DNA from: Catajapyx aquilonaris
Taxonomy: Eukaryota
Direction of reading: 5' to 3'
NCBI GenBank assembly: GCA_000934665.2
Contig: JYFJ02000329.1
Location: 1-64,000 of the forward strand
DNA length: 64,000 nt
Below, piece by piece: positions 13,616 to 41,300 of the stretch (position 1 is the first letter of the stretch; the number at the start of each line of letters is the position of its first letter). The position numbers and the translations under genes are program-made. The notes beneath the pieces are model-generated. The model was not told the DNA's origin. It was given only the letters and a program-made list of their open reading frames with translations, and did no database searches.

Positions 13616-16600
13616 CTACATGCCCTCTCCTTGCAATGCACACAGTTTGTAATACAGGCCCCTCTTGACCAGGAGATCATGGTGACTTCCTGACTCCACC
13701 ACACGCCCACGCTCCATCACCAATATCAGGTTTGAGTTACGAATTGTTGACAGCCTGTGGGCGATTATGATGCATGTCCGCCCAACCTGGGCCTTGTCCA
13801 GTGCTTCTTGAACAACCTTTAATTACAATGATCGTTGTTGAAATCATAACTAATGTAACTATTATTACGGGCATACCTTTTCACTCTCTGTGTCCAAGGC
13901 AGATGTGGCTTCATCCAGAAGCAGGATTTTAGGGTTTCGAACCAAGGCTCTGGCAATGGCAACCCGTTGCTTTTGACCTCCAGACAACTGAGTTCCTTTT
14001 TCGCCAACTCTAGTCTCGTAACCTTGTGGAAGGCCGGAGATGAAACTGTGGATGTTGGCAAGTCTCGCAGCCTCCACTATTTCATCCATTGGGACATCAC
14101 GACTGTTGTCGCCATAAGCTATGTTTTCTGCTATGGTTCGATCAAACAGGACCGGCTCTTGGGACACCAAACCTATTTGATTCCTGAGGTACTGAAGTGT
14201 AAGTTTTCTGACGTCATGATTATCTACATCCTGAAATGAGCAAATTATTTTGGTTGCAATTGAAAAGATCCCAAGAATTGACAAACTGAAATCCTAGAAC
14301 ATAACTTACAATTTGCCCTGATAACGGATCATAAAATCTAAGAAGTAGTTGTATACACGTTGACTTTCCACAACCGCTGGTGCCAACTAGTGCTACTTGG
14401 TTTCCTTGATCAACATTGAGGTTGATCCCCTTCAATATCATTCCTTCAGGCCGACTCGGGTAGTTGAACTTTACATTTTCAAACGCGACTCGACCATGGC
14501 TAACTTCTGCTGTCTGATCGGTCAATTCAGGGTCGCTAATCTGGGGCTTTCGAGCCAGCAGATGAAATATCTTGGCTGCTGCAACACGTCCCTTGGTGTA
14601 GTTTGGAGCAAAAGCCATTGCCTGCCCCACAACCATAGCGCCCACGACCAAAGCTTCACTCACTCTGGAAACATTAGCAGTGCAGTTCAGCCAAAATCTT
14701 CAATAATTATCCGGTACATTTGTATAAAAATTAGTGACACTCACTTGAAAACAGCAGTGAAGGCAATCCCATCTTGCACAACCAGATAAGCCCCGTAGGC
14801 GATGATGACTGCATAACCAATGTTGGGCATGGCCTGCGAGAACCCATACACCAGTCCTCTGGGATGGGCGTTTCTCTTGGCAGTGTTGTGGGGTTTCTCC
14901 AAGATCTTGCTGTAATTGTCCAGAAAAGTGTGCTGTCGACCCAGGCTGGCCACAGTTCGGACGTTGGTGATGGCCTCCATGGCCATCCTGGATGCTCGCT
15001 CCAGACACTGCTTCTCGGCTATGTTCTGCTCCATGATCAGCTTGGTTTCCCAGACAGACCCCATGAGAATGAGAGGTACCAGGGCCGAGCTGGCCAAACC
15101 TAACTTCCAGCTGAGGTAGAGAGACAGGATAATGGACAAGGCCAGGCTGAATATCCCTTGGAATAAGGTCCCTATCCGATTGCCAGTGGCCTGAAAATGG
15201 ACAAAGTGTTAGGTGCTGAACTATATGCTGTGAATAGTTTGGCACAAAAACTTACTCCTTGGACACTAGCAGCATCTGATGATAACCGTGAACAGAGTGC
15301 ACCAGAGCTATTATTTGGATTGTCATACCAGCCCATTTCTTGTGACAACATGGCCGAGAACATTTTTTCCCTCAGACGCAATGTCAGCTTATCGCCCGAT
15401 AAGGTGAACATCGCAAACTGAAATGACAAACAGCAATTTAGGTTCTCTGTCACGAATCACTTTCTCAAACACTATATTTACCTGAAAAAACGCCGCTAGT
15501 CCTGAGAGAATTCCAATGCCTATAAACGCGACTGCGTAAAAGTCTCCATAATATCTAGCCGTGTCGTCATCTATGATAGACAGAGTCTGCAAGAGAGGCC
15601 AGTCAATCACAACAGTCTCGCTTATTGCACCATATGTATGCAAATTGCTGTTTATTCCATGCCAAAATGCTTTTGGTAATAACCTGATCGGAATATTAAT
15701 GAAGCAAGCAGCGAGGCGGACATTAATTTCAATACCTCCCATTAATCAGGCAATATGCGATGCATATACTTACGCCAATAATCTCTCCGAAAATAACTGC
15801 GTATAGGGGCATGCTAAACCCCTGAGCTGCTGATGCTATAGTTCCCACTAGAATATACGGCCATTCGGGCAGGTTGGCTTTGAATATTTTCCATAGAGAC
15901 AACTGAGGAACTCCATCATCCTGTAAAATGAGGCAATATGTATGACCTGTGTACTTTTATGCCGGTAATGCATACCGTGAGTTGCGCAGCTTCTGGCAAG
16001 CTGCTTCCACTGACATCAACCCCTGTAGATGTGGCACTGGTTATACTTTGCACCCTCTCTAACTCAGGCCTTGAAGGCATTACATCCAGCGGTTCTTCCT
16101 CCAGTACTGTGGGCAACTGTGCGTTTACCAGCTGGTAGTACAGACCCTTCATTTCCATAAGGACCTCGTGTGTTCCTTCTTCCTTCACCTTCCCTCCATC
16201 CAGAACAAGGATGCGGTCAGCAGATCTGATTGTGGACAGTCTGTGGGCCACTATGAATGTGGTTCGGCCTTCCTTGGCTGCATCCAGCGCTTTCTGGACA
16301 ACAGCCTCGCTTCTAAGGTCCAATGCGGAGGTTGCTTCATCCAAAAGAAGGATCTGGGGGTCTCTGATCAAAGCTCTGGCTATGGCCACTCGTTGCTTTT
16401 GGCCTCCTGACAACTGGGCTCCTCTTTCGCCCACCAGAGTTTCATATTGCTACGAGCCAAAAGTCATTTTTAGAGCATAACGTAATCATGTTGCAACCTA
16501 CTGTACCTCTGGTAACTGGTTGATAAAATCATGGGCATTTGCTTGTCTGGCAGCCTTTTCTACATCTTCCTGAGTGACACCGTCTTTTCCCATGCGGATG

Positions 16601-18915
16601 TTGTCTCCTATGCTGGTACCGAACAGCACTGGTTCTTGACCCACGACGCCGAAATGGGAACGTAACCATTGCAGATTGTGCTTCCTGATATCAACACCGT
16701 CTACCTTGACCTGAAATAGACAAAGTCAAATTTCATATTTCTTCATTACAGACCCCCTTTCTCATGAGGCCGTTCCACTTTTCACGCAATAAAACTATGG
16801 GGGAGAAAGGGGGGGGGGGAAAAATTGCGTGCGCTTGAACGGCTTTGTCATGCAAGACTTCACAACCGCGCATTAACTAATTGGCCAACTTTTGCAGTGT
16901 AATTACTCTGTGATAATTAAACTCACCGCTCCATCAAGGGGGTCGTAAAACCTTTGAAGAAGCTGCAGGATTGTGGACTTCCCGCAGCCTGAGCCTCCAA
17001 CCAGTGCCACTGTTTCTCCAGGACTCACTTTCAAGTCCAGGCCTTTCAATATCTGCAATTATTATCAAGATTTTTTTTACCGTGACTAAATATGCGCAAC
17101 GAGTGTACCCAACAGACTTACGTTAACTTCCGGACGAGACGGGTAGTTAAAGTGGACATTACTAAACTCGATAACTCCTTCGAATTTTTCTGGACGTAAT
17201 CCTTCTTCGGATGTGCTGTCTATAGTAGGATGTCGCTCCATGACGTCAAATATGCCGGCACATGATGTCTTGGCAGACGCGAAAGTCTCGAAGTAAGGCG
17301 ATCCCATGCCTAGAGTCAGGGCGCCCAACAGGAGGCACAGAAACACCTGCAAAAAAAACACGCAGCCTTGACACCTGCTAATCGAGCAACAATAATGAGT
17401 GTACTCACAATGGTAAGTGCGGCTGCGTCATACTCAGGGTCGGCTTCACCTCTGCCGTCCAGAATGAGCTTGATGCCATACCAGAAGGCCAGAGCATATA
17501 ATGCGTATATCATGAACCAAAATATTCCGTTTCCTAGACCAGAAACGATGGCGCGACGCACACTTGCACTTTTTGCATAGTCTAATCTCTCTGCGTATCT
17601 GAAACAATAATATTGTCAACATTTTGTGACAACCACAAAGTTGGAGTCTTTTACCTTTGAACTTCTTTGTTCTGTCCACCGAAGGCAACCACTGTCTTGA
17701 TGGACACCAGCACTTCTTCAGCCACGGATCCAGCTTTTGCATATGCGTTCAGTTCTTGCTGGGTGAGCGTGGCCTGCACCTTGGCGGCTATCACATTTGA
17801 TATGATCATCAGAGGAACTGCGGTCAGAATGACCAGGGTCAGCTTCCAGCCGTAGCAGAAAGCCACTCCGAAGCACACGGCGCACGTGGACAGGCAGTAC
17901 AGGCATATGGCACCCTTTTCCCCGATGCCTTCTTGGAGCTTCTGAAGGTTCCTACAAGCATGAGGATTAATTAGGCAAAATGGGATTATTACGATAATAA
18001 ATAAAACAACAAGTACATAAATTAGAAATAAATGAATTTTAAAATGGACATTGATGCGTAAGAAAAATAAAATAAATTCTGACATCTGGTGTACAATGCC
18101 ATTGGTGACAGTGACACTTACTCGGTGATTTTACTACAGAAGTCTGTAGTTGCGTGGGTGTCATACCAGCCAACGTCTTGGCGTAGCATGGCTTTCAGAA
18201 AGCCTATCCGGATGCGGTATATCTAAAATGCAATCAGGTGTCAGTACCATTATTAATAAACTCGTAAAGGTGCATGACCTACTTGTTTCTCTGCCGTGTA
18301 GCTGAAGCACAAGACAAATATATATCCCATTACGATTTGAACCGCAGACACTATTATGACGTTCATTCCGTATTTTTGGGCTTCCCAGAGGAACGTGTCT
18401 TGGACGGATTTGTTGGCAGTCCTGGACCAAAAATAATGGGGATGAGACGCACTGGCTGGTACACAAAGACGATATAACTTTAATGAGAAGCTTACGTAAT
18501 GTTTTCGGCAAGGTCCACAAACGCCTGCGCAATATCTCCAAACATAATGAGTGTTGCAGGGAGTGTGAACCCCATGAGTATTGCAGTTAAAACACCGAAG
18601 GCTAATATTATCCTTTCCAGCGGTATCGAATGACGAAACTGAAAAAAAATATATTTATAAAGTACAATTGCTTGATGACTATTTGGTGAGACATACCAAC
18701 TGGAAGAATGACAAAGCAGGAGGTGCATCTTTGTCTTCATCCGCTTGTTTGTTGTCTATTTCTTTAGCATTTTTTTCATACTTTCTTTTGGCTAACCATG
18801 CCCTCCATGTGTTTCGTCCATTTTCCACTGCTGTTATCTTGTGAGTTCCATTGGGCCACTTTTTGGGAGACTCCGGGTCCTCCTTTGAGTCCGTGTCGAT
18901 TATTGTTAGCTCCAT
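13616..18915 (-). CDS. ABCB1: ABCB1/P-glycoprotein (Mdr)-like full ABC transporter, paralog A, 1295 aa
   Basis: Seventeen exons: 18915-18697, 18638-18496, 18421-18283, 18222-18122, 17951-17655, 17598-17409, 17346-17122, 17052-16927, 16710-16507, 16449-15976, 15920-15774, 15586-15482, 15417-15256, 15190-14745, 14664-14310, 14230-13877, 13816-13616 (3888 nt, in frame). TMD-NBD-TMD-NBD layout. Walker A GGSGCGKS and GTSGCGKS; both NBDs have [26 protein letters not shown] and AHRLSTI. Confidence 0.96.
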
Positions 18916-23126: not shown

Positions 23127-23485
23127 TCAGCTAGTTGACGGTACCTGAATATGTAAAATACCACATTAAATATCAATGCTCGTATCTGTTATCAAATTTG
23201 CACATTCATCCTCTGCACTCACCTTGTCCTCCGCAGAATGATACAGCCTGTAATAGAGGCCTCCAAGATCCAGTAGTTCGTTGTGAGTCCCAGCCTCCAC
23301 TATCACCCCATGATCTATGACCACTATGAGATCAGACCCGCAAATCGTTGACAATCGATGCGCAATCACTATACATGTCCTTCCTTCCTGCGCCTTCTCC
23401 AGAGCCGCTTGAACCAACTGCAAACCAAATGTTATAGTTATAGTGTTATAGTTATGTTATTAGTAACATGTAACTGACTTATAGG

Positions 23486-23521
<36 letters not shown>

Positions 23522-26500
23522 TTCAAACATGACACCCAAAAATTCACCTTTTCGCTGGTGGTGTCCAGTGCCGAGGTGGCCTCGTCCAGCAGCAGGATGG
23601 CAGGGTTCCTGACCACGGCTCGAGCGATGGCGACCCTCTGCTTCTGCCCTCCGGACAGCTGAGTGCCTTTGCTTCCGACCATTGTATCGTAGCCCCTGGG
23701 CAGATCCGCGATGAAGTTGTGAATGTTGGCCACTTTTGCAGCCTCGATTATCTCCTCGATCGGCACCTCTCGGCTGTTGTCTCCGTAGGCGATGTTCTCC
23801 CCTATGGTCCTATTGAACAGTACTGGCTCTTGGGACACCAGACCCAGCTGACCTCTCACATATTTCAGTCGGAGGTCACGAAGGTCGACACCGCTCATTG
23901 ACTAGAATAGTTGGCCACAACGGGGTCAAACACGGTCGACGGGTTTTTTAAATAATAGAAAATATGGGTTCACACAGGCACCGTTAAGCGTCAGGCTCTG
24001 GAATTACTTGTCAACCTGCTCTCATTAATCTGCTCAGCAATTGTGAAATTACGCATATCAACAACACCAAAAGCAGCAACGGCACCAATGTGAACCCAGC
24101 TTAACCACGCAGTAGCCAGCACTCACAACTTTCCCCCATGTTGGATCGTACAACCGGAGGATGAGCTGCAGGATGGTGGACTTTCCGCATCCGCTGGGTC
24201 CGACAAGAGCCACGGTCTGTCCGCTGTCCACGTGGAGGTCTATTCCGGACAGGGTCTGAGTCGAGGGACGAGTCGCATAAAAGAAGCGCACATCGTGCAT
24301 GCTCAAGCTGTCTCCTTTGCCTGGGACGTTGTACAGGATGTAGTCGGTCGAATCCCGTACCTCCGGCGTCCTCTCCACCAGCTGCATGATCAAGCCCGCG
24401 GCCAATCTGCCCTTGGTGTAGCTCGGGGCCATCGAGAAGGCTTGCCCCACCGTGATGGCCCCTATCACCAAAGCTTCGCTCACCCTGCGAGAAAGCAACC
24501 ACGTGAATATATGCAAACAGAGTGGACTTGCACAAGGACTCACGTGAACACCGTGGCGAATTTGAGTCCGTCGTTGATGACCAGGTAGGCCCCGAAGGAT
24601 ATGGAGAGTCCGTAGATGGCATTGGGGAGACCCTGCGCCATCCCGTATATGAAGCCCCTCAGATGCGAGTTCTTTATGGACTGCTTGTGCGGCGTCCTGA
24701 GAAACCCATGGTACATGTCCAGAAACGCTTCTTGGCATCCCAGGCTGGCCACAGTCCTGAAGTTGCTGACGGCCTCCAGGGCCAGGTTGGACCCTTTCTC
24801 CAGGGCCTCCTTCTCGCTCAGGTTCTGCTTCACAATCATGTCGTTCTCCCATACGGCGCTGAACATTACGAACGGAACCGTCAAAGCTACGACCGTCCCC
24901 AGCTTCCAGCTCAGGAACACTGACATGATTATGGAGAGAGACATAGTAAAGCCCGCTTGAACCAGGATTCCAAGGCGGTTACCGGCTGCCTGGAACAAAC
25001 GGATACAAGTTCAAAGTGGTGTTTTTCCACCAAGAAGGTCTCTGACTCACCCCTTGGACACTAGCAGCGTCGGACGAGAGCCGAGAGGACAGAGCCCCTG
25101 AGCTGTTGCGACTTCTGTCGTGCCAGGCCGACTCCTGGTCCATCATTGCCTTGAAGGTGAGCTTCCTCAGGCGCATCGTCAGCTTGTCTCCTGAAATGGT
25201 GAACATCGCATACTGCTCTTTTTATTAACCCTGTCAGAGTCGCGAACTTCTGCGGGAAAGAAAGGCTACAGGCAACAGGGATAGACTTACTTGGAAAAAT
25301 GCAGCCACTCCCGAGATGACTCCAATAATCATGAACCACATGGAGTAGTAATCTCCCCAATAGCGAAGGTCATCGTCGTTTGGGGTAGACATGGACTGCC
25401 AGGAAGCAATTTAATGTCAACTGTTGTGCCAAGAATTTTCTGATTTGTAGTGTCAAATATACATACTGCTGTGACCTCGCCGAAGAAGTAAGAGTAGGCA
25501 GGCCACGTGGCGCCCTGAATCGCAGACCCAAGAGTCCCGACCAGCAAGTACGGCCATTCCGGAAGGCTGATCTTTAAGACTTTGCTCACCGACAGTGGAG
25601 CCGGCTCTACGTCGTCAGACTGTTCGGAATAGGCAGAGCTACGAATAGTGTATTACACAAATGACTTGCCGCCGTGCATTGTGTCTCACCATCTTTGGCG
25701 TCACCAGGCTTGTCCGCGATTTCCCCACCATCGACGCGCCGGAGTCAGACGACGACACTGGACTCTCTGTCCTGGCTCTGCTTTTTGAACCTTTTCTGCG
25801 AGGGTCAAATTTGCAGGTGTATACGGCTGGCTTTAACTAAACAGCACGTCATGCTACTTACGGCGATTTAGACCTTTTGATGACATCTTCTTCCGTGTGG
25901 CACTGCGACTTGACCATGTTGTGGTAGATCGCTCCCTTCCTCATCAGGTTGTCGTGTGTCCCCTCCTCTACCACCTGGCCGCTGTCCAGGACCAGAATCC
26001 TGTCCGCCGACCTGATAGCCGACAGCCTGTGAGACACAACCAGAGTGGTGCGACCCCTCTTTGCCTCGTCCAGCGCCCTCTGGACCACCGCCTCGTTCCG
26101 GAAGTCCAGAGCAGAAGTGGCCTCGTCCAGGAGGAGTATCTTTGGGTCCCTAACAAGCGCTCTAGCTATTGCCACCCTCTGCTTCTGACCACCCGACAGG
26201 CGTGCCCCACCTTCTCCAAGTATAGTGTCATACATCTGAGCGTGAAAAGAGCTGTCTGTAGCTCATATTATTCTTCAGAGATCAGGCACGGGACATACCT
26301 GGGGAAGCTTCATGATGAAATCGTGTGCGTTGGCCATTATTGCAGCTTCCTCAATGTCGTACTGGCTGGCGCTGAGTTTTCCCAAGCGGATGTTGTCGGA
26401 AATGCTCATCCCGAAGAGGGCTGGCTCCTGTCCTACCACCCCGAAATGGGATCGGAGCCACTGGACATTCAATTGCCTGAGGTCAACCCCGTCCAGCTTG

Positions 26501-28532
26501 ACCTGGAACGAAACCGTGATGTGTGTACACAATACTACGGCAAAGGACATATGTAGTCATTACCACTCCTCCTGTTGGGTCGTAGAACCTCTGAACCAAG
26601 TGCAAGATCGTGGACTTTCCACTTCCAGAGCTTCCGACCAGTGCTACGACCTCCCCTGGTTTGACAGTCAGGTTGAACTTGCGCAATATCTGACAACAAA
26701 CACGGTTGCATTGCCTGCCAATTTAGCGTTAAGACAATGCAAACTCACTTGGACTTCGGTTCGCGCAGGGTAGAAAAAGTCCACGTCGCAGAATTCGATG
26801 ACTCCATGGAAATTGAACGGTCTCAGACCCATCTCGGAGAAGCAGTCGATTATGGGTTTTCGCTCCATGACATCGAAGACGGCTCCCGTAGCCCCTCGTG
26901 CAGCGGCGAAGGTTTCAAAAAAGGGCGAACCTTGTCCGAGGTAAATGGCTCCGATCAAAATGCACAGGAACACCTGAGACAGAGAAGAGGACAAAACGCT
27001 GCGCACTCATACTTTTACGTCTCATAGGAAGTATACGATTAGCCGCTTCTTCCCAAGAGACACCTACAGAATGGGTGTGTGGCTTTGTGATGTGATCTTA
27101 CCACAGTGAATTTTTCGACGTCGTACAAATCATCCTGTTCTTTCCTACTCCTCAGTATCAGCCTGATGCCATACCAGAAGCTGACAGCGTACAGGACGTA
27201 ATTCAGGAACCAAAATATCCCGTTGCCCACACCTGACGCCATTGCACGCTTCGTACCCATCTTGTGAGCGAGAGATAGATTTTCCTTGTACCTGAAAGAG
27301 GGCACGAGTATTGCATTGTATTTCATGTTACTTCACGTGCCGGTGCATTCACCTTTCGACTTCCTTTTCCTGTCCTCCGAAAGCGACGACTGTCTTGAGG
27401 CCCATCAAAACTTCGCTTGCGACATCACCAGCCGCCGAATATGATTTCAGCTCGTCCCGAACCATGGTGGCCAGGATCATAGAAGCGATTACGTTGGCCG
27501 CGATCAGCCCTGGCACCACGGACAGGATCACCAGAGTCAGTTCCCAACCTTGGTATAGGGAGATCACGATGCAGACAACGAAGGTGGCCACGTACGAAAG
27601 GCAGATAGGAGCCTTTTCGCCTATGCCTTCTTGCAACTTCTGAATGTTCCTGCAATGAGAGTCATCCCGGTGATATCCTAGGAAGCTGGGAATTTATTGC
27701 TGCATATTTACTCCGTGATTTTGCTGCAAAAGCTGGCGTTCGCGTGCGTGTCGTACCAAGAGATGTCCTGCCTCAACATGGACTTGAAAAATTCGTTTCG
27801 TATTCGTAGGATCTGCAAATGAAACTCAATGTAAAAGTGAACTTGTGAGGAACAATTCGGTTCATCAATGCAAATATATTAGTAGCCTAGTAACTAGTAA
27901 CTAACCCATTGATGCTATCGAGCTGATCAGACTGCTGAGAAAATAAATACAACGATTATCTTGTAGACTTGTAGAATAACCAACCTGGTGTTCGGCAGTG
28001 TAGTAAAAGCACACCACTATTATGTAATCCAGCAGAACCTGAAGGGAGCTTATGAGGCACGAGTAGAGTCCAAAATATAGGCCATCTTGCAAAAACTGTT
28101 CTTGAACACTTCGACTCGCGTTCCTGCAATCAACACCTGTTTTATCCAACGCCTGCAGGACATAAAAACTATGTTACGTACGTAATATTATGTGCCTGGT
28201 CCACGAATTTCTTGGTGATACCACCACACAAGACGAGGATTCCGGGCAAGGTGAATCCCATGGCCACGGCGAAGAAGATACCCACGCCCATGATGACTTT
28301 CTCCTTAGTGTTCGCATACCTGAACTGAAGATCGGACACGGAGCAGTACAAACAGGCATTGCGGATGTTAATATATTACACCTACCAATGAGAGATATGG
28401 CACGGGCGGACGTCTGTCTTCATAGGCTGAGCAACAAGAACCGCTGGGTCCTACACGTTTCTTCCTAGATATCAACAAGCGAAAGCTACTCTTGTGTTCC
28501 GGGACGGTTCTAGCCTCTAGTTCTACCGACAT
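23127..28532 (-). CDS. ABCB1: ABCB1/P-glycoprotein (Mdr)-like full ABC transporter, paralog B, 1280 aa (1293 aa if the last intron is retained, stop at 23166)
   Basis: Exons 28532-28386, 28324-28182, 28123-27985, 27812-27712, 27649-27353, 27291-27102, 26973-26749, 26689-26564, 26502-26299, 26235-25862, 25795-25690, 25619-25467, 25395-25291, 25212-25051, 24989-24544, 24484-24127, 23901-23548, 23417-23223, 23144-23127 (3843 nt, in frame). Walker A GSSGSGKS and GPSGCGKS, two LSGGQ signatures, two [11 protein letters not shown] motifs. Most internal exon lengths equal those of paralog A. Confidence 0.95.
23486..23521. repeat. (ATT)12 microsatellite, intronic
   Basis: Read directly; it produces the spurious poly-Ile in the ORF track. 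Confidence 0.95.
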
Positions 28533-29470
28533 CGCCGTTTTTAGGCCAGGTTAACGTTGCTATGCAAAGTGCTCCCGTCAACAATAGGCCATTGTTCGGC
28601 ATTTGGCGGTCGAAATGTCGGCCTATACTCGTGAACCAGAACTTTGAAACAGGCTGGTGTTGGAGCTCCTAGTTTTGCCCAAATAGTTCTGCTATAAATT
28701 ATTATAATGCTTAGAGAGAGCACTTGGGGTGAAATGCGAAGCAGGCTAACAATATGACCCAAGCAAAGATGGCGGACGACTGACATTATTGGACTAATTG
28801 TTGTCCCAGTTGTCATTATTGATTCTTGTCCAAGTTGTAAGACAACTGTAACATACAGAAGTGTCGTGAGCTCTCTTCTGACTTATCTTCTGCACAGGAA
28901 GATGTCCCGGCACTTGTTTGTGCACTCGACCCTTGACAGAGTCGTAAAAGCAGGGCTGCATTCCTGGCCTCTCGATTAACACGACTCACTATTGCTTTTA
29001 GATAGCTTCTGGACTTGTTCTCAAAATGTATACGTCCCACTTAAGCATGTGGTTTTTTGGTGATCAAGCTAGACGAGAAAAACACCAATGAGCATAAGCC
29101 ATGAAAGTTAAGCTTATCGTGGACAAGATCTTACAACGTGCTTGCTGTATTAATTGCATTACATTAGAGAAATGTTAAGAATTTCCTGCTCGAGTTAGAC
29201 ATAAGCGGAACACACAAAATTAACAGAGGTTTTTGTTTGTTTCAGCATAACTGGCGTAGCAACAGAGCTTCTGCAACAGTAGCCTACAGTTTCACTTCAT
29301 TGTGGCATCATTTATTGTAGGCAAATGGAAAGGATAATAAAGTTTCGATAAAACTGCATTCCCAAATAATAAATAGAAGCGATATTTATTCCACGGGATA
29401 TTATATCAAGGATTTCTGCGAGGGTAAGAAAGGTACATGTTTTGCATCCTACCTACCCAGCAAATTAGAG

Positions 29471-29538
29471 TGCCAGCGTAGTGGTCAAGACAGTCACTTA
29501 GCAATCCGGAGGTTGGCGGATCTAATCCAGCCTGGGCA
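29471..29538 (+). mobile_element. Degenerate tRNA-derived (SINE-head-like) sequence
   Basis: TGCCAGCGTAGTGGTCAAG (A-box-like) ... GGCGGATCTAATCCAGCC (B-box-like hairpin), with ends TGCC/GGGCA able to pair. Not a canonical cloverleaf. Confidence 0.5.
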
Positions 29539-29634
29539 TTTTCCTTTTCAGTGACACTGCCAATTTTAGTGTGTGTACCGCTGAAGCAAGTACTTTTCCC
29601 CTTTCAGTACATTTTGACACTTCAACGATGCAGC

Positions 29635-30150
29635 GGTAAATAGGCTAGACCGTCTGTACACCCACAATTTCGTTGCAACAGATTTGTCTCTGTGGTAACG
29701 CAACAGACTCTCCATTGAAAGGTTCTGGGATCTAATCCCGGTGCTTCTTCAGTTGAGGTCTGCCAAGATTATTTTTGCAGCAGTCATCTCTGGCCAAGAT
29801 GGCGACTGTTTCTTCGGTGTTCTCGAAACACCTTCCGAGTTGAGACTTGGCGGATGTGGAGCGGGAGGGGAAGAGGAGGGGGAAGGGGGGATGTATTAAT
29901 AAATAAAAATAATTTTATTTCTTCTTCCCCACCCCTCTCTTCAGTGCCCCTCTCATCGTCTTTGACCTTTTTGACCCGGATAGATGAAGTAGATGCGCCG
30001 CCATCTTGGCCTGAACTGATGGCAACAAATATTTTTCCGCACCCTGGATTTGAACCAGGAGCCCTAGATTGAGAGCCGAGAGCGCTGCTATCATGGCCAG
30101 CTTGCACCAGCTGCTTTCATGTGGCAATCGGAAGGTCTAGCCTATTTACC
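29635..30150. mobile_element. 516-bp TIR-bounded element containing two inward-facing tRNA-like heads
   Basis: Perfect 17-bp inverted termini GGTAAATAGGCTAGACC (29635-29651) and GGTCTAGCCTATTTACC (30134-30150). B-box-like GGATCTAATCC on + (about 29728) and GGTTCAAATCC on - (30056-30046), each followed by GGCCAAGATGGCG. A further copy of the left end begins near 30226. Confidence 0.7.
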
Positions 30151-31228
30151 AATTCAAAATTTTTGATTGTTTTGCCTTCAGTTCATTTCTCTCACACTCT
30201 TATATTGTAAAGATTGTACTGGACCAGTAAATAGGCTAGACCTTTTCAACGCCCACAAATTCGTTGCTACAAAGTTAGCAACTGAAAGGTTTAAAAAAAG
30301 TTCGCTTATGTATATATAGACAGATCGGATTTTATTGCAGTCTGTAATAAATATCACGCCTTCCATTCCGTATTTGTCGATTGTTTTCTAAGCAAATAAA
30401 CTTTAGGGTTTACTAATAACAAAATGTAACAACCATGAAATGCAATAATTGTGGGGTTGGCTGGAGTTCGACTGCATGTATTGCATTGTCTCTGTTTGGC
30501 AAACAGCTAGTAGACTAACAATGGTCGTCGGTTTCCAAACATTGACACATGCCCCCGTCACAATCAAGCATGTTTACGTTCATAAAACTGGCCTTTAATT
30601 TACATTTGCAGGCCAACTTTCAGTACTTCTCAGGCTATATGAATTCTATATACCGTATAAAAAAAGACTCCAGCGACCATATGACGCACTTTCTTCCTAT
30701 TCTCACCATATTTTGTTTGGTCTATTCATCCGGCAGGTCGATGCAAGAAACCACTGTCCACCTCGTCCCAGAAAGTGACAGCAGTGCTGGGAACCTGCAT
30801 GAAAAATACACTACTGCACCCTCTATATTACTCAAAATTCTTAGCCTTTGTCATCTAAGGCACGGCATTCCCGGGTCCACATTCCAAGGCACATGGGTCG
30901 TGAGAGGGACAGTTGGAACTGAGCTGTGTGAATATGCACAATATGTGAAATTGTCCTGCAAAAGAGACCTGTAAAAAGGAAAACGGGGTAGAGACAACAC
31001 GTCACAAACGGTCAATAATTTTCTTTCTTTTGTCACAGTGAACGATCCAACATTAATGGAAAATATATAGAGGTCAGTACTTTTTTTCTTATTTTTTTCA
31101 GGAAGGAGTGCAAGAGTTGTACATTGTCGTCCCCCAATGTGCATTGAACCTTTCAAACTCTAGGTACAGATTTTCCTAAAGTCCAATCAGGGCCTAAATG
31201 TCCAGCATTCAAGCCTGCAGGAGGGGCG

Positions 31229-31252
31229 AATAATAATAATAATAATAATAAT
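31229..31252. repeat. (AAT)8 microsatellite
   Basis: Read directly. Confidence 0.9.
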
Positions 31253-32373
31253 AAACACAATTAAAAACCTTGAAGGAGAAAAAGGGCGATGCTGTCTCAC
31301 GAGTCCAGCTCACATGTAAGAAGAGCCCACCATTTTTGTGTGTGCAGAGATCGATTGTGACACGCTGAAAAAACTAATCCCGACAAGTTTTCAAAACACA
31401 CTATTTTTTTTCAAGCTTCAGGAGCGGAAAAAACAACAACAAAACAAATATCAGCTACACGGCGAGGTAATGGATTTTTTTTTACGAGAGTCTGTAGTTA
31501 AGAATTGAAAATTATAGATTGCCGACTCATTACAACTGGTTTTACTCAGTGTCCTCTGCAGTAATGAACCACACGGAAAAGGTCTGTCGAAAACACAAAA
31601 TATATGGGTCCAGATATCTCTCTTTCCCCCCTTTTTTGTATAACATGCATCCCCATAAACACACACATTCACACTCACACGTTTGGTATTGACACAGCAA
31701 GATGTGTACAACTGCTTGCAAATACTGCGAGTAGAGGACTGCTTCATGAATACTTGACATTAAAAACTGAGGGGGACATTGGCGATTTCGTACACTTGGC
31801 AAGTTGGAATTTAATTTTTTTTTTTCTTCTCTTTCTTATCTCGTTCTACATGGCATCATGAGGAGATGGTTCGCCTGCTGAGCAACGTTTGTCAGTTGCT
31901 ATGTTTTAATCCAATGGTACATCAGTACATCGTCCAGTACTGTTTTATACTATACAGTGTGTTGCAATTGAGCTGTCCGATGTGCACTAATATGTACATT
32001 TTAAAGTTGTCAACAAATTCTGACTTCCAATATTAGCGCTTGTTTTGGCAGCACTGTGTACCTGCAACATATCTCAGGTGGAATTAGGTCAGATTAATTG
32101 AGTCAAATTCATTGTAATTCAACATAACATGAGAATCTAATATGTTCCTCAGCTTACTATTGCTGAATAAAAAGCAGCTTAGAGAATCGGACACTTGAAC
32201 AATTGCAACCCATTGTATTCAGAGCATTGCCAACCAGCTTCTTCAAAGGCCTGCCTGCTGACACGAGCAGTTCGCAGGGAGTTTCCGTCCCCTCACAACA
32301 AATCGGGACATTCCGCCACGCGATGTCACCAACTCGACTGGAGACGAGAACTGGAACGTGAACGAAAAATACA

Positions 32374-35300
32374 CTAACTCACACAACAGTGATTAGTTCT
32401 CCTAGGGAAACAGATAAAACGACAGCGAAAGAGCGGAGATGAACCACCCCCTCGGTTCCTCCAGCCCTACGTCTCGGCCGACTCTGCGCTTCTGCTGGAC
32501 AGCAACGCGTCCGTCCTGATGTTGGTCCCCTTCTTCTTCCAACTGCCCACAACCCCTCCAGTACTGCACTTGTCCCCTCCTCCTCGCCTAAGACCAACCA
32601 GCCTTGGAAAGATCCCTCCCTGTCCCTTCGACCTGGTCAGAAACCCTCTTCTGGACTGTTGCTGAGCCTCTTTGTCTGCCAGGACAGAGTCCAGGCTGCC
32701 GGATATCATCCCGAGCTTGGTGTCCGGCGACGGTGGTGGACTAGAGAAGCTGCATGGTGGACACCGGCCGTGCGTGCAGCTGCCGGACGTCCCGCCGCTG
32801 TTCCGCTTGCCTGTCTCGGGCGTGTTTGGCTCGCTTTCCGAACGCGACGTGGACGCCGGCTGCTGGTGCTGCTTCCGGCGGAGGAAAGCGATTCCGTGGG
32901 ACAGTGTCCGGGACGTCCGGTGGCTGGACGGCGGAGGGGTCGGGAGGTTGTGAGGGTGGTGGCTGCCGTTCTCATCTGGAAGGGGCTTGTCGCGACTGCC
33001 TCCGGACATCAGCAGCCTTAATCGGGACAAAAGCCCGGGGTCTTTGCTACGTCCGGTTTTGGCTGGACGGCCACGTCCAATAGGCGGGTTCACACTGGCG
33101 GTGACGTTGTCGTCGCTGACGTCAGTCGCGATTTTAAACTTGAGCGCCCGCTCGCTCACGTCCGCCTCCGTGTCCAGCTCGTCGTCGTCCGCTCCGTCCG
33201 GGTGGGACGCCACGGCGCACTCGCCCGCCGACAGCACTCCAGAGCTCTTCCGGGACGACCTGTCCTTTCCTGGACTCCGGACGCCGCTGTCGGACTGCCC
33301 CTGCTGCGGACTGACCGCGTCCCTCTCGGCGCTTCCACTCCGGACGCTCTCGTCGGTACTACGTCGCTGCTTCTCCTCTCGGGCCAACTCGTTCAGGCGC
33401 CTGTAGTGCTCCAGGGCGTCTCGAACTGGGGTTATGATCAGTTCCTGAAACGTGAACAGTCCCTTAATATTATAGTCAGGACGTGTATGGACGCACCATG
33501 CGACTTACCTCCAGTTCTGGAAACATCGCTCCTAAAGCCTCGAACAGCGGAAGAAGAACGTAGCCAATAAAACTGCACTGAGATGAGGGTTTTGTAATCT
33601 TGTCTCTGTCCATGAAGGGTGTGACTGGAAGACCCTCCAGTTTCTCAGTGTCGCTCTGCTGGAAGAATTCCTGGAGAGAAAAATTATTCACATGATCAGT
33701 GCTATATCAGGTGTAAACTAAAAGTAATAATCGCTCAAGGGTAGAACTTCCGGTTTTAATTATCAGATTTCTTTTTCTGGAAACAAACGAGAGGATGTTT
33801 CAAAAAATGACCGTCAAGCGAATCTGCTACCGGATATTGAGTTACGGCCGGGACAATCAACCGAAAATATCGAAAAGCAATAGACAATTTCCAGGCTCCA
33901 AACTTAGCCTTTCCCACCCTACGTAATGACATTTTACCATGTCCTTGCCTCTTCACTCTCATTTTTTTTTGTCATCCCAAAGACTCCACTGCTTTAATAA
34001 ATGGAATTCAGGATCGAGTGTGATCGATTGTTTCCTGACTTTGCTCCGAGTTCAATTTATGGCGTGCCAATCATATCGGATGATTTCGGTCGCTAGGTGT
34101 TCGTAGAATAGAAAAGGAGACACAGGGTGGTGCAGTCCAACAGTCATCATCGATAAATTCAATCAATATACAAGGAGTTCAGAACGTATGGAACAGTCAG
34201 GACAGAATAATTAAACTGTGAGTGTTACTTGTTTCAATTTAAACTTGCCATTGGCACGATTTGTATTTAATTTACATGGGTACTGCACCACCTTGTACAT
34301 AAAAAGATGAGTGCTGAGTTTGGCAGGACACACTTTGGGTGACAGCGATGAGCAAAATCCGTCCCTACAACTTTCAAGAGTGTCAATCCAGCCAAAATTG
34401 TCTGGCTGTACAACACCGGATTCTGCCTTGTTTTTCAATCCAACTCAGTGTCCAACTTGGAGAAACTTCGATCTTAATTAATGCTCTAATTGGATCTCAA
34501 CTTTGGGGCTGACAAGACCAAAATTCCTCCAAGGCAAACGCATAACATGACTTCCTGTAACTTCCAGATTCTGTCTGATTAAATCCGAAACCAACGAGGA
34601 ATTATTTACACATATTATTTTTCCTTTTCAGGTGAGAGTTTACCTGTAGCAACAAGTCTAACCAGGGTTCAGCCACGTCCAAAGGTCTAGCCTCGTTGGA
34701 AATGTCTGCCACTTTGATCAGCACCATAGACAGCTGGAAAGATAAGCAAAGGTTAAGTAGGGGAACTAATCGTCATTATGTAGGGTTCACACGGATGTCT
34801 TTGTGTCTCATGGAGCAGTTGTCGTTGTGTAATCCACCAGAGCTGGCAACATGGCAACTGACATTGTTGAACCCATAAACAGCAACGACCAACGACCAAA
34901 CGACTCCAGTGTGAACCCAGCTGGACAAAGTGGAAGTAACGTCGCACCTACCAGGTTGATGTGTGCTCTGTTGGAAAAGTCAAAGTTGGGTGAGATCTCC
35001 TTGAAGTTGTTGAGGATTTCGTTGTGGCGCGCCATGTCGGTGGCCAAAATGCATCGTATCATGCCTTCTCGAATCTTCTTGTACTCCTCTGCCGGGAAGT
35101 TCCGGAAGATGTTGAACTCATCCTGCTCCAGGATTCGGAAGGCCACGGAACAGTGGTGGTTCTCCAGAGGTGAGATGTCGTTGTAACGCAACGCTAGCTC
35201 CGTCTTTGCGTTTATCTGTGCGGACAAGCAAAATGGGTTTTGCACAAAATTTGATTTTCTCAACGCCCCGCAGCAACTGGGTGGTTTTGCCAGCTTAATG

Positions 35301-38300
35301 CAACTCTGTGGTTTGTATATGAACTCAATACTGAAATAACTACAGACGTGTGGGAAAAGACATCTTGTTCAACGTATTTATTGAACGAATCTGCGTACCG
35401 TAAAATAATATTGGTTTTTATCTACTTTCAAGACAGAAACTAACCTGGTATATGTTGTTGAATCCAGGATGATCCAGGTCGTGACAAATGCAAGAAGTGA
35501 TCAGGATGAGTGTGTCCAGGTCGCCAATCCTGTCTCGAAGATTGACGCACCACGCCATGCCGTACATCTGACAAGTGACAAAGAAACTTTCAAACATTGG
35601 CAATCTCCTCATTAAAGTTCCGGTTAATTAAAAACTTTTGAACGGAAGTCTCTCTCCTTCCCAACTCTTCACACATCAAAGGTTAAGGACTGGCTAGCTA
35701 CTAACTTATTAATGCGCATTTCGAACCGTGCTCCAACATTGTTTCCTCCTGGGAGAACCGGCCATAATTATCCCATCTCAAACACAATATTGCCGGGCCT
35801 ATTTCTGGGGAGGCCTCGCCCTAAATCAATCAAGCCCCAGCTTATTTTATACGGACCCCTGAGAGGGTCTCTGCATTTGTTCCTTTTCGTCTTAGGCAAT
35901 ACAGTCTCTATCTATATTTGAATTCGAAATCAATAAATTATCAGGCCTATCTGGCATAGATGCATAATGAAATAGGCAGCTGGGCAAATCCCGAGTGCAC
36001 AGTATGTTTAGATTTCTCTCAAAACCATTTGCATCCAAAGCATATAAGCATCAGACTGTTTATTTGCATGCTGGGATACTTGTGTCGTCGCAGAAACCGA
36101 TTTTTGATATATGATGCTTCAGGGATATAAGGAAATTGGAAGAGCTCATTTGGGAAGAAATTAATCAAAAATGCAGATTGCGGGCGGTTTGCTTGTAGAT
36201 TAGACGATAATGTTCATTTGGGATATGAAAATCGTGAAAATTGAAGGGCAACAGTTGGGCTGTCAATTTGTGAGAGTTGATAACACAACAGAGACTATAC
36301 TTTCTAGTTCACCCCATTTTCACCTTCTGGCTTTAATCAAAGTTATGAATGCAAAAAAAAACATTCATGTATTGATAATGTTACTTTCCAGCAAAAAAGC
36401 CTATGTATATTTTGTGAGATCGATTCTTGAAAGCGTCATCATGGTGCCAGCTGATTGTTTCTTTTTCCTCTCTGCCACACCCGCACCAAACTGTCGACTT
36501 AGCCTGCAGTCGTCACACTTTCACGTACAATTTCTTCCCCAACTCGCCATCCAATTTCCCCTAATGCACCAGGGAGTAATAATCCAATATTGATCAATCC
36601 TTCACAAAATTGTCTCCGTTTTTTTGTATTCATCTCTCCCACATGTTTCAACACCTCCAGTGTCCACCATGGTTTTCCATTCCAAGCCCTCCCTTCCATG
36701 GGCTGCAATTTTTGGTCCCGAAACAAGAGCCGATGCTCCAAGAGCCATTTTGGAAAGCCCCTCAAATTCGGTGGGCCTGCAGTGACGTGAGGCAACATAT
36801 TCCGGTTGCCGTGGAGACCGTCTGGCAAGTGACCTCCTCTTCAAAATGTCCGACACTTGACGCCGATTCGATTTCTGCTGGGTCTTTGCCGTTTTCCCCC
36901 TGCCCATTTCATAGAACGAGCTCAGAATTCGTCAGATGCGTCTAGAGACTCATAAAAAAAGGAACTTATTTTTAAACCCTCAACAATTCGCGATTTTAAG
37001 TTCCAAGTATAAAAAAAACGGTGTGAAATGCATACCAAAAAAAAAGTTCAGAATCTAGTTTTTATATGTGGTTTCAGCTAAAGCTGAAAAAGCTCCTGGA
37101 ATACGACACGCCCAACCAACTTCTTGAGATTGGTAAACTAATTATTTTTGGGAAAACGAGCAGCCGCCCTAATTATCATAGGACTGTTTCGCGAGCAGTT
37201 ATGCGGAATGTTTTAGGGGCAACGATTTCAGGGAGAGATGAGAAAAAAAGGGGCAATTGTGTATGGCAGAGCAGAGGGGGGGGGGGNNGGGGGGGAAACT
37301 GAAAATTGCCTTAGGAATCGTCAATTCGCAGTCTAATTTCGGTTCCTGCAAAATCTTATTCCGCTCCAGGCAATTCGGATAAAAAATTTGTCCCAGTGGA
37401 AGACTAAGTCTGGTTATAAACTAAACTTACAAACTTGCATTGATATATGAAATCATCCAAATTAATCACCAAGTGGTATAAAAATGGGACTAAAGCCGGA
37501 ATTAATGAGATTAAATCATGCAATCCATATTAAAATTGTATTATAATTAAAAATTGTATGCGCAAGGCCGGGCCCGGTCCGATTATTGTTGCCGCGACGA
37601 TTCCTGTTGGTCCGCGTTCTACGCATGCGCAATGGGTGGATGAACACCTCAGTCGTTAGCTGGAGAGCGTAGAGTACACATCGTCTCGTTATTGATAAAT
37701 CCTGTCATTTTGCGGAAATAAATCAAAGCTTTTCCTTCCTACACATTCTCATTGTTTCTCATTGATTACTCTAGAGAGTAGCACCAATATTGTTTTTAAC
37801 CCATAGCATTCATCCCCTGCCTTTGAACCGTCTCATTGTTCCTTCTACACATCCGCCCCCATTCTTTTTCTCTCTCACAAGTTCTCAAAGACCAGTTTAC
37901 AGACTCCATTTTAACACTCTTCCTAATCAATTTTCTCCCGATAAAGTTGGCCCCCCCCGGTTGTATTATTCGGTGCTCGGAAGGGCTCGAATGCCCGGAA
38001 AATCACCGCAGACAAATACCCCTTTTTGAGCAAGATCCGTTGAATTGTGCTAAAATAATCAACGTAGTAATCGAGTCTCTTCCTCACCACCAAACCTAAT
38101 TAAAGCCCGGGCTTGAAAGAGGAATGAATGTAATTCTTCTCGCGGATATAAGAGATTTGAAAGGTTCTATTTTCAGTAAGGGGGTGATATGCTATATAAG
38201 GCATCGCTCCCTGTAAGTGGATCTGTGTAGTCGTATACAGAACCAAGGGAGAATTGTGTTCTATATAAAACACTACTTGTAACGCTAATGAAATTAGCTG

Positions 38301-41300
38301 CGGACGCCATCAATATGCACTCAGCCGCTAAAGGAAGTTTGAGGAATGGAAGCTCTCAGGCAACATTACCTTGGGTTGGGGAGGAAGCAAAAACAATTAC
38401 CTTACCCACTTCAGCTTTACACACAGACCCTCCCCCACCACCACCACCAAAAATACTTTTTTTTGGGGGGGGGGAGGGGGAGAAGAACAATTCCGGCATT
38501 CCCCCCCTTAAAAAAAAAAAGAAGAGCTGGAGTAATTCAGTTACCATCTGAGCGACGCAGAAGCAGTGACGGAAGTTGTGGAAAGGCACGTCGTTGTAGT
38601 TTCGGTACACCTCGTAGAGGAACCGCCTTAATGTCCCCAACTCGATGTTGAACTTCTGGGGAAATTCGAACTCGAGGTACATCTGCTGCATTAGCAGAAG
38701 GATCTCTTCGTCTTCCCACTGCCAGTTGTCGAATGTCGGCATGCGGAGGTAATCACGGACTTCTTCGGACACGGAGACGTCGCTGGGGAAGGAGAAAGGA
38801 CACACTACAGTCACAGCCACATGACACCCAGAATGTACTTAACAAGTCATCAACTTCATGTCCCTTGATAAAATACATGTCGTTTTATGTCCAACCATAT
38901 GCGTCATGTAGTTGTACAGTGCAGTGCAGCAGTGCTCAAGTTACTGTAATGCGACAGGAAGTTCTATTCGCTTGGGAGAGCAGCCTGTTCAAGACAGAAG
39001 AGACAGGTAGATGTATAGCACACAAAGAACTCTCTTTACAGTTATAACTACTGCGTCACTACGGAAAATAAATATTCGGAGCCAAATCCACCAGAGATTC
39101 AGAAAAATAAATTGTCAAGGACATCATTTTCCAACAATCCACCTCAGAGTTCAATTTCTACACAGAAGTATACACCGTCTTTCACCAGATTTCCCTGCTT
39201 TAGCATCAAAACATGGGTTTGTAGAGTGCTTCAACCAGCAATTATCAAAACAACCTGATGTAAACCAAACAGTGCACGCACTAAAACACCAACTCGACTG
39301 CTGGACGGATATTGAGTTTGCAGGCAGAAATTCTGGATATACGTCCACGGTCCGGGCTTTTTGTTTATTTTCGGACCAGCTCCGTGCGTAAACCCAATTT
39401 GAAGCATCAAAACTGACCAGAAACATATCCTTTTTTCTCTGAAAGCCCCACAGTATGACCAATATCCGGCCCTCGTCCCGTTGCGTCCATCTGACCTTTT
39501 CTCCGAAGCCATATCCCTGCTGCCGGAGTAATATTCCGGAAAAACTTTCTCCCAATCCACAATTCCAAAAGAAGCCTTGCATCGAAGGGAATGAAAAAAA
39601 TAATAAACCTGAGATTAAACTCGGCAATAACTTAATGGCCACAAAACCCTGCTCCACATACTTTTTTTTTTGCTCCCTGAGCTCCTTCTTGCAATTGCTT
39701 TATGGTGTCCTGTCTGAGATAATACGGGTCGCAAGTGGAGCAATCAATCCTCTCCCAGTGAAACAATATCGCATACTTATGCTGCTTAATGAATGGACGT
39801 GAATTAAACAGGCAGTGTTAATATTTAATGTCAGTGGGTGTGCGCTGCCCATCTCATTATCCGTGTGAGAGACGTCAGCTTTAATCAAAATGTGGCACAT
39901 AGTTTGCTGCTGGCAGAATTATGGCATGTACAAATACGATGCGTGTTTCAGGAGTAAGCTCACATCCGTATATTATGTATGTAAAATTCTAGAGGAAGTT
40001 CCACTCGCCTTCTTCAGCAGGATCTTGTAATTATATTTATTTAGCAGGCCATAATACCGGATATGTCTGTGAGTTCATTATTTGCATATAGAATGCACAA
40101 AATGGATGTCAGTTATGGGAGCGGTGTTCCAATAACGACCCTTCCAATATGCCAAAAACATCTCAAATACAGAGAGTCTGAGAGTTTTAGTCACGCTGAG
40201 TTTGCGGGATTGGATTTAAAGAGAAATAGCTGGAGACAAGAGTTTACGCAATATCCTACTTACATTTTCCTTTTCCAGGTTACCCAAACCTTTCTATAGA
40301 TCTGCCCACACGGAATTTCAGAAGCCTTTGGTCTGGTCTGCTAAACCTAGATTGGCAAATACTGAATTTTGTGAAATGTTTTCTGGAGTATTACATTACA
40401 AGGGCATACACGAGAGCAAAACAGCGTTACGTAACTTCTGGAAGACCCAAACTGCCGTCTTTAAATCTTCAGACATATAGCAGCTCCATTACAGTACCAG
40501 GTGTAAAATTCAAGTCTTCGCGACCCACACCTGCTTCCCATCAGAGCTAATCTCGTCTAGGAAGCTGTAAAATGCTCAACAACCCGCATAAGTAATTTGC
40601 GGACTTGCCCTGTCGCCTCCCTCATTACCTATTTGCCAGCTACTTTGGTAGGCCATTACTCACCAAAACTGATGACTTTCCTCACTTCCACACGCCAACC
40701 CAAGAGGTCAGACACTTGTTTCATATTAATCATCTCGTATCACATACACGGTAACAATAGGTGAATAGTAATAATAATAATCATCATCATCTTTCCTTTC
40801 ACTTACAAAATTAACACTGTACTTTTTCTGACATTTTTGACAAAAGTTAAGAGAGAAAAATTTAATTAGGGCTGGTAGTTTGATTTCAATGTATCATCCT
40901 GAAAAACTAATATTCCGCCTGAAGATCACAAAGTAGTATAGTCTGTATTTTAAAAAACTGTTACGATTATCTCTGTACAGCACATCAGTGGTATCATATA
41001 TCACTCAACTCCACATCGAGTGTATATATAAGGTGAAACTAGAGTGGCTTCTCTAAATTACGATGCATCCTAGATTTCAGGGAACAAAACTGACTTTCAG
41101 GCTTCACATCCGGAGGAGAAATCCTACGCAGTTTCCTTTGTAGTCGGCGTCTCGTTTCCCTCAAGTCAGAAGACTATTTTCTTTCCCATTTACAGGTCTC
41201 TCTAATGATAGCTTCCGGTGGTAGAAATTACGCTCCAGTTAATCAAGCCAGGAAGACAGCCCCAGGCACCACACCACACAAAACCCCAAGCTTTCGACGG

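Follow-up and report, generated by a model that had tools for sequence, protein, structure and literature searches.

In the arthropod Catajapyx aquilonaris, the last coding exon of a gene for PDE9, a cyclic GMP (cGMP)-degrading enzyme, raises the question of where the encoded protein ends. The window analyzed here is a stretch of 64,000 nucleotides (nt) of contig JYFJ02000329.1 (GenBank assembly GCA_000934665.2, positions 1 to 64,000 of the forward strand), in which the gene lies on the minus strand and its last exon ends TCG GCC GAG ACG TAG. A preliminary description of this DNA had proposed that this stop overlaps the donor of a cryptic 69-nt terminal intron, so that splicing would give PDE9 a lipid-anchored, CaaX-type C-terminus (CCVS) and intron retention a soluble enzyme. 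Past the TAG, the main frame stays open for 30 codons, up to a second TAG at 32376–32374. In flies and mosquitoes, Pde9 has previously been recognized as a readthrough gene. We put at about even the chance that these 30 codons are the orthologue of the Pde9 readthrough extension of Drosophila and Anopheles. What would be new is that such an extension exists in a distant arthropod, that it has a short form ending in CCxS, and that a lipid anchor is proposed as its payload.

Judged by Pfam, catalytic-exon identity and tblastn, the gene is a PDE9 orthologue. One of its exons matches Pfam PF00233 (PDEase_I; E 3.5e-28), one catalytic exon shows 77–84% identity to PDE9A of decapods, Daphnia, amphipods, and insects, and exon-by-exon tblastn with decapod and Daphnia PDE9A placed exons from ~56.2 kilobases (kb) down to the last one, 33444–32470. 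This last coding exon (325 codons, minus strand, preceded by a 64-nt intron at 33508–33445) encodes a low-complexity tail with SGSLDSVL and, as previously pointed out, basic clusters upstream of the stop (WKKKG among them). The tail shows homology to the PDE9 tails of insects, Collembola, and crustaceans, for the first two over its whole length, with the common motifs SGSLDxVL and GSF/W-(R/K)-x-K. Used as a protein query in the full representative search it gave four matches, one of them an unrelated repeat protein, and against the longer candidate proteins it gave no match at E ≤ 0.001. The stop of the relatives falls 7–27 residues past the second motif, SF(R/K)xK, and the TAG at 32469–32467 falls 20 residues past it; since its position agrees with the relatives' ends, this TAG was taken as the normal end of the main PDE9 isoform.

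The layout behind this stop was read from the letters of the minus strand. The first, annotated stop (32467–32469) is followed by a G (TAG-G), the second open reading frame (ORF) of 30 codons occupies 32377–32466, and the second stop is the TAG at 32374–32376. The frame ends in TGT TGT GTG AGT (32377–32388), coding for CCVS, and contains an upstream Cys pair in the codons for C-R-F-I-C (32410–32424), which splicing would remove. The interval proposed as an intron (32402–32470, with GT at 32470–69 and AG at 32403–02) measures 69 nt, that is 23 codons, and its only in-frame stop is the TAG at its start. Splicing and readthrough would lead to the same last eight residues, the difference being the 22 residues between. 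Readthrough needs both an interval that is a multiple of three and an open frame, and splicing needs neither; therefore, readthrough is favored. The last 16 residues of the extension hold four Cys (at least four are found in 0.57% of the ORF ends of the window); of the 4783 ORF ends in the six frames of the window, 7 have CC at positions -4/-3 and 2 have CCxS, each count including the candidate, a rarity that is no test of the readthrough reading because the window was picked for its CC end.

In the proposed mechanism, a fraction of the ribosomes would decode the TAG at 32469–32467 as an amino acid and go on for 30 codons to the TAG at 32376–32374, giving a minor PDE9 isoform with a 30-residue Cys-rich tail. 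The Cys cluster of this tail would become S-acylated and, as CCVS fits a CaaX box, possibly also farnesylated in this arthropod. The readthrough isoform would then bind membranes and the terminated isoform would stay soluble.

Support for readthrough comes from published data on the orthologues. In Data S1 of Jungreis et al. (2016; PMC5100048), Pde9-RB of Drosophila melanogaster (FBtr0299635, FBgn0259171) is listed as a readthrough candidate of 97 codons with the stop context TGA-C, and its Anopheles gambiae orthologue AGAP002927-RA as one of 107 codons, also with TGA-C; both are marked there as stop-orthologous and "Ancient," and the fly transcript is indicated as present in the 2011 list as well. 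In a 2026 preprint (PMC13278127), Table T3 gives Pde9 a 291-nt extension, Conserved_SCR 1, 3/3 models, and tier1, and Table T9 gives the dm6 junction as SSSEAGPKI*QQGSTRQDAVAISKGYDGAVE. In the literature found, Pde9 was linked to readthrough in supplements and in no main text. Among the stored proteins, P0094 of Drosophila sechellia contains GSTRQDAVAISKGYDGAVE, the same stretch as in the fly junction, and its end, 93 residues later, is VCHCCERKLPEPENV / TVWSAIGQRLNALVCHCCERKLPEPENV. ORFs and "partial" proteins, 81–131 residues long and carrying this extension end, occur in several flies and mosquitoes, which is what would result if annotation treated the extension as a gene of its own. Five NCBI entries from Drosophila hydei and several mosquitoes (P0129, P0132, P0133, P0134, and P0139), named "uncharacterized protein, partial" or "atrophin-1-like, partial," are pieces of 106–131 residues ending in the Pde9 extension motif, and here the readthrough region seems to have received its own gene annotation.

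In beetles, protein P0084 of Callosobruchus chinensis ends ERETTFVGYIFCRCCKYKPNPKENV, and its congeners P0086 and P0087 end EREPPPLI*; the congeners' last five residues and stop (PPPLI*) are replaced in P0084 by 22 residues ending CRCCKYKPNPKENV, which looks like the work of a gene predictor splicing round a read-through stop. Gene predictors seem to mishandle the Pde9 end in one of two ways, an intron drawn around the stop or a separate partial gene made of the extension. In protein P0060 (Nicrophorus), the last 40 residues include a CC-RRPSSYAKKLDPPSE stretch that resembles the extension motif and lies upstream of the normal ADVI end. The dipteran extension ends C-x-C-C-E..LP.PENV, and its CC, like that of the beetle extension end, aligns with the CC of the Catajapyx frame; when six extension ends were aligned, two adjacent Cys were the only invariant columns. 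In Diptera, and probably in beetles too, the published Pde9 extension therefore has a C-x-C-C cluster at its end.

DNA of relatives around the PDE9 stop was obtained by a metagenome scan with alignment of tail fragments, which yielded 17 loci, all from distant relatives; scans of further genome-contig and viral-contig collections found no relatives. The complete last exon and stop were present in four independent loci: L002 (equal to L003), L005, L006, and L017. Locus L002, on a distant insect-like contig, has ~33% identity over the initial part of the exon, and the closest resemblance of its tail is to a stick insect protein. In it, SPSREEIK TGA is followed by 28 in-frame codons, YVLVVEDSSDKKLSLRGWWPENLFCCNS, which end in FCCNS and are followed by TAA. 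A post-stop frame of nearly the same length and with a CC-x-S end is thus found in a second lineage, and the shared Cys Cys Ser codons (TGT TGT AGT in Catajapyx, TGC TGC AGC in L002) differ in third positions only. The extension of L005 ends FLCSQCF*. Among the loci, 3084 forward-frame stops include two other distinct CC..* ends; with four relatives, a single CCxS has a chance of ~1 in 1000, or perhaps ~1 in 100 if other impressive patterns are allowed for. The L002 layout, the dipteran readthrough, and the C.CC ends support the earlier idea that PDE9 can gain an alternative Cys-bearing C-terminus past its stop. Loci L010 and L011 are ~93% identical throughout, so that their exons are indistinguishable from introns, and an ORF ending in C.CC in them was rejected, as it looks like a splice-acceptor tract. 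In the seven closely related loci L007–L013, a frame ending ..LCCRI*, ~10 nt upstream of the start of the last exon, is just a TGTTGCAG-type acceptor tract in translation, an example of how splice-site sequence can pass for a Cys-Cys end.

What the extension would do depends on its Cys residues. A CaaX box requires Cys at position -4, an aliphatic amino acid at -2, and a last residue that farnesyltransferase accepts. C-C-V-S agrees with this rule, and it does so because the frame stops two residues after CC. In the flies, mosquitoes, and beetle the Cys cluster lies 11–14 residues from the end, and the CCNS end of L002 has Asn at -2; hence, prenylation cannot be the conserved function. No credible CaaX end was found in the annotated PDE9 proteins retrieved: one of the 124 stored proteins has Cys at -4, and this single case is a contig ORF running on past an exon border. 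Of the earlier prenylation claim, the fit of CCVS to a farnesyl-type box therefore stands, but the element that is conserved appears to be a Cys cluster among basic and hydrophobic residues, which is more suggestive of S-acylation. Such Cys clusters on cytosolic proteins are typical S-acylation sites, and the cluster of the extension is probably lipidated. The pair of soluble and membrane-bound PDE9 forms can likewise be retained as a proposal, although the switch between them would more likely be recoding than splicing. No lipid modification of PDE9 turned up in the literature found, the available parts of a 2025 and a 2023 review holding no relevant passage. Mammalian PDE9A is described as partly membrane-associated, with no anchor named in the text available from that source (PMC6506465). 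None of the papers found, one methods paper apart, linked readthrough to a CaaX or prenyl signal.

We infer that readthrough occurs in this arthropod and that a lipid-modified Cys cluster would be its conserved payload. A wider reading is more doubtful than the orthology itself and is offered tentatively: Pde9 readthrough may predate Diptera, going back at least as far as the ancestor that insects share with this pancrustacean-like arthropod; the conserved payload may be a Cys cluster for lipidation, so that readthrough would dose a fixed small fraction of a cGMP phosphodiesterase onto membranes; and CCVS may be the first readthrough-appended prenyl anchor.

The splice signals on which the alternative rests are all present. 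The letters confirm a donor overlapping the stop (GAC/GTAGGG, GT at 32470–32469), an acceptor formed by a pyrimidine-rich tract ending CCCTAG/G (last intron base 32402), and the product of joining 32471 to 32401, ...SAET + RTNHCCVS, with its stop at 32376–32374. For comparison, 34 introns were curated in the window, 29 of them from two ABCB paralogues (by mutual alignment and frame) and five from PDE9. The preliminary description was also right about the local intron range, since 22 of the 34 measure 56–80 nt, and about the use of GTAGG-type donors elsewhere in the window, GTAGGT being found in two of the 34 (one in PDE9, at 34951, and one in an ABCB gene, at 18282). Donors and acceptors were scored with matrices built from these introns, donor ranks being leave-one-out; the position-specific acceptor matrix (34 sites) proved too noisy, the candidate scoring -1.8, and a pyrimidine-content model was used instead. 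Of the 34 real sites of each kind, the candidate donor outscored 9 and the candidate acceptor 15; C at -1, as in this donor, occurs in six of the 34, and there is no AG between position 19 of the intron and its acceptor. Decoy pairs 50–90 nt apart and equal or better numbered 24 in ~99 kb outside same-strand gene bodies (~0.24/kb), which gives a chance of ~0.4% for such a pair within ~15 nt of a given stop, so that a pair exactly at the stop is unlikely as an accident. The YTRAY branch motif is missing from the proposed intron, but only 18 of the 34 real introns have it, and with 9 of 24 decoys and 32% of random 47-mers also carrying it, it was rejected as a test, real introns and decoys not being told apart. 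The splice signals are thus only mildly above chance, and the intron is plausible, not compelling. Among the curated introns in general, G occupies -1 in only half of the donors (17 of 34), and polypyrimidine tracts are short (pyrimidine fraction 0.70 at -14..-4 and 0.52 at -25..-15).

The rival reading built on these signals holds that the 69-nt intron is spliced in part of the transcripts, removing the stop, and that its retention gives the soluble form; it may coexist with readthrough. It predicts neither the multiple-of-three length nor the open frame, and it finds no equivalent in the relatives: L002 gets to CCNS in frame, with a sole frame-keeping GT-AG of just 45 nt, in L005 and L017 no GT occurs 30 nt or less from the stop, and L006 has none that gives a short-range Cys end. 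The fly and mosquito orthologues use readthrough, not splicing, and the absence of a credible CaaX end from the retrieved annotated PDE9 proteins also speaks against it. As the mechanism, the cryptic intron is not the best explanation, and we consider it improbable. A variant of it starts from the GTGAGT at 32382–32377, which is present as had been noted and doubles as the codons for V and S. Here the 19-nt stretch 32401–32383 would be a micro-exon, reached through the acceptor at 32402 and left at the donor at 32382 toward a further 3' exon, with loss of VS*. A good acceptor and GTGAGT do lie 19 nt apart, but the window has many acceptor-donor pairs that are as good and no more than 60 nt apart (49 on its minus and 35 on its plus strand), and the donor scores above only 5 of the 34 real donors because of its exon-side bases. 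In addition, a search for a fly-type exon (..LP.PENV*) downstream of the PDE9 stop found none, and tblastn of the 90 C-terminal residues of each of 139 stored proteins against 28500–32700 returned only the known tail and noise, so that no further exon came to light from 32374 to the next gene, at ~28.4 kb; L002 has no GT after its CC. We regard the micro-exon as very improbable indeed. In the 3' region there is also a 73-codon open frame on the minus strand (32157–32378; RVGDIAWRNVPICCEGTETP .. GCNCSSVRFSKLLFIQQ*), which would be in frame with the stop-overlapping donor via acceptors at 32374 or 32338. It contains two Cys pairs, has no coding signal beyond its openness, and gave a 12-residue match to the fly extension at E 0.03, among 4313 tblastn matches (noise).

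Several observations weigh against readthrough, and some of them favor the other rival, in which the TAG at 32469–32467 is the sole end of the protein, the DNA downstream is 3' untranslated region, and CCVS arose by chance or is a decaying relic. Codon usage after the stop is not coding-like: the G+C content at third codon positions (GC3) falls from 0.75 in the last exon to 0.43 over the 30 codons, with 0.25 for the final eight, and the extension has a codon log-likelihood of -10.7 bits, versus ~+0.45 per codon in real exons. By contrast, the Drosophila Pde9 extension has a high GC3, given as 75.3 in the preprint tables (PMC13278127). Thirty open codons follow a stop by chance in ~1 of 4 cases ((61/64)^30), T-/G-rich non-coding DNA yields TGT and TGC codons more often than expected, and this gene end was picked for its CC out of very many scanned. 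The similarity to other extensions consists of the CC, the S in common with L002, and a general Cys/basic/hydrophobic character. Loci L006 (two post-stop codons) and L017 (58 codons, without Cys) show nothing comparable, RNA structure after the stop was not significant (z-scores -0.55, -0.34, and +0.30), and a workable GT-AG pair spans the stop, through which splicing could give the same last eight residues.

The stop context counts on the same side: it is not the leaky TGA-C of fly and mosquito, but TAG-G, a minority context, and readthrough is stated to be more often lost at TAA and TAG (PMC5100048). TAG-G is nevertheless present among the published candidates: in the supplement text with the candidate table of that paper, TAG-G gave 39 and TGA-T 112 string matches, a few of them from figure text. 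In Table T9 of the preprint (PMC13278127), the medium and high bins together held 56% and 33% of the reads of the TAG variant of the fly Pde9 fragment in two replicates, versus 48% and 41% for the wild-type TGA and 20% and 13% for TAA; these percentages are our own arithmetic on the raw counts, with bins taken by label, and by them the TAG variant looks closer to TGA than to TAA. A purely accidental origin would, on the other hand, have had to strike a gene that is among the few for which ancient readthrough has been published, with an extension ending in a Cys cluster, and L002 would also need a CCxS by chance in the same frame (~2 in 4783 per ORF end). We hold the chance or relic reading to be unlikely, although with more to be said for it than for the intron, and keep readthrough as the preferred one.

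The remaining PDE9 exons, all on the minus strand, lie upstream of this region. The catalytic domain is encoded at 35567–35445, 35215–34952, 34733–34644, and 33670–33509 (tblastn, Pfam PDEase_I, and splice sites); an upstream exon lies at 38545–38781 (start approximate), and further 5' exons lie near 43342–43212 and 56256–56099 (tblastn). Long homopolymer runs (T, G, C, and A) occupy 38440–38520, in the intron after the 38.5-kb exon, and an (ATT)n repeat lies at 31230–31260 in the intergenic DNA 3' of PDE9. Two tandem ABCB transporter genes follow downstream on the same strand, from ~28.4 kb; therefore, at most ~4 kb is left for the PDE9 3' end. Both (P-glycoprotein-like; 13640–18640 and 23240–28330, minus strand) are full-length, with block-wise amino-acid identity of 42–78% between them and at least 16 exons each, the introns mostly measuring 56–80 nt. 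The assembly contains three N bases in the window (21192 and 37287–37288).

Stop-codon readthrough affects hundreds of insect genes, and very few of the extensions have a known function. If the readthrough reading is true, PDE9 would give a concrete function, a Cys cluster anchoring part of a cGMP-degrading enzyme to membranes; translational recoding would be linked to the compartmentation of cGMP signaling, and an "ancient" readthrough event would extend beyond flies and mosquitoes. A practical lesson is that, where a stop is followed by an open frame with a multiple-of-three "intron," readthrough should be considered first.

The closest known system is the Pde9 readthrough of Diptera. The two share the gene family, an in-frame ORF directly after the C-terminal stop, an extension end with two adjacent, aligning Cys, and fast evolution of the extension, as is described for readthrough regions (PMC5100048). 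They differ in the stop context (TAG-G in Catajapyx versus TGA-C), in length (30 codons versus 97–107), and in the end itself, since CCVS* stops two residues after CC whereas the fly frame continues with E(R/Q)KLP.PENV; moreover, codon usage in the candidate Catajapyx extension is not coding-like. Among other phosphodiesterases, PDE6, including that of Drosophila, is prenylated, and PDE10A2 is reportedly palmitoylated; like them, the extended PDE9 would be a cyclic-nucleotide phosphodiesterase localized by a lipid on a terminal Cys, putative in its case. Readthrough is described as appending a peroxisomal targeting signal type 1 (PTS1) in AGAP010769/CG1969 (PMC5100048) and in mammalian LDHB (PMC4359377). 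These resemble the present case in having a short post-stop extension with its function at the very C-terminus, by which a fraction of an enzyme is redirected, and differ in that here the signal would be a lipidation motif. Drosophila complexin provides, through alternative splicing, the isoforms 7A, with a farnesylated CaaX box, and 7B, without CaaX (PMC5890968). As the preliminary description proposed for PDE9, this is a case of arthropod isoforms with and without a C-terminal lipidation box; in complexin the switch works via alternative exons, whereas in the PDE9 gene of Catajapyx readthrough is the better-supported route.

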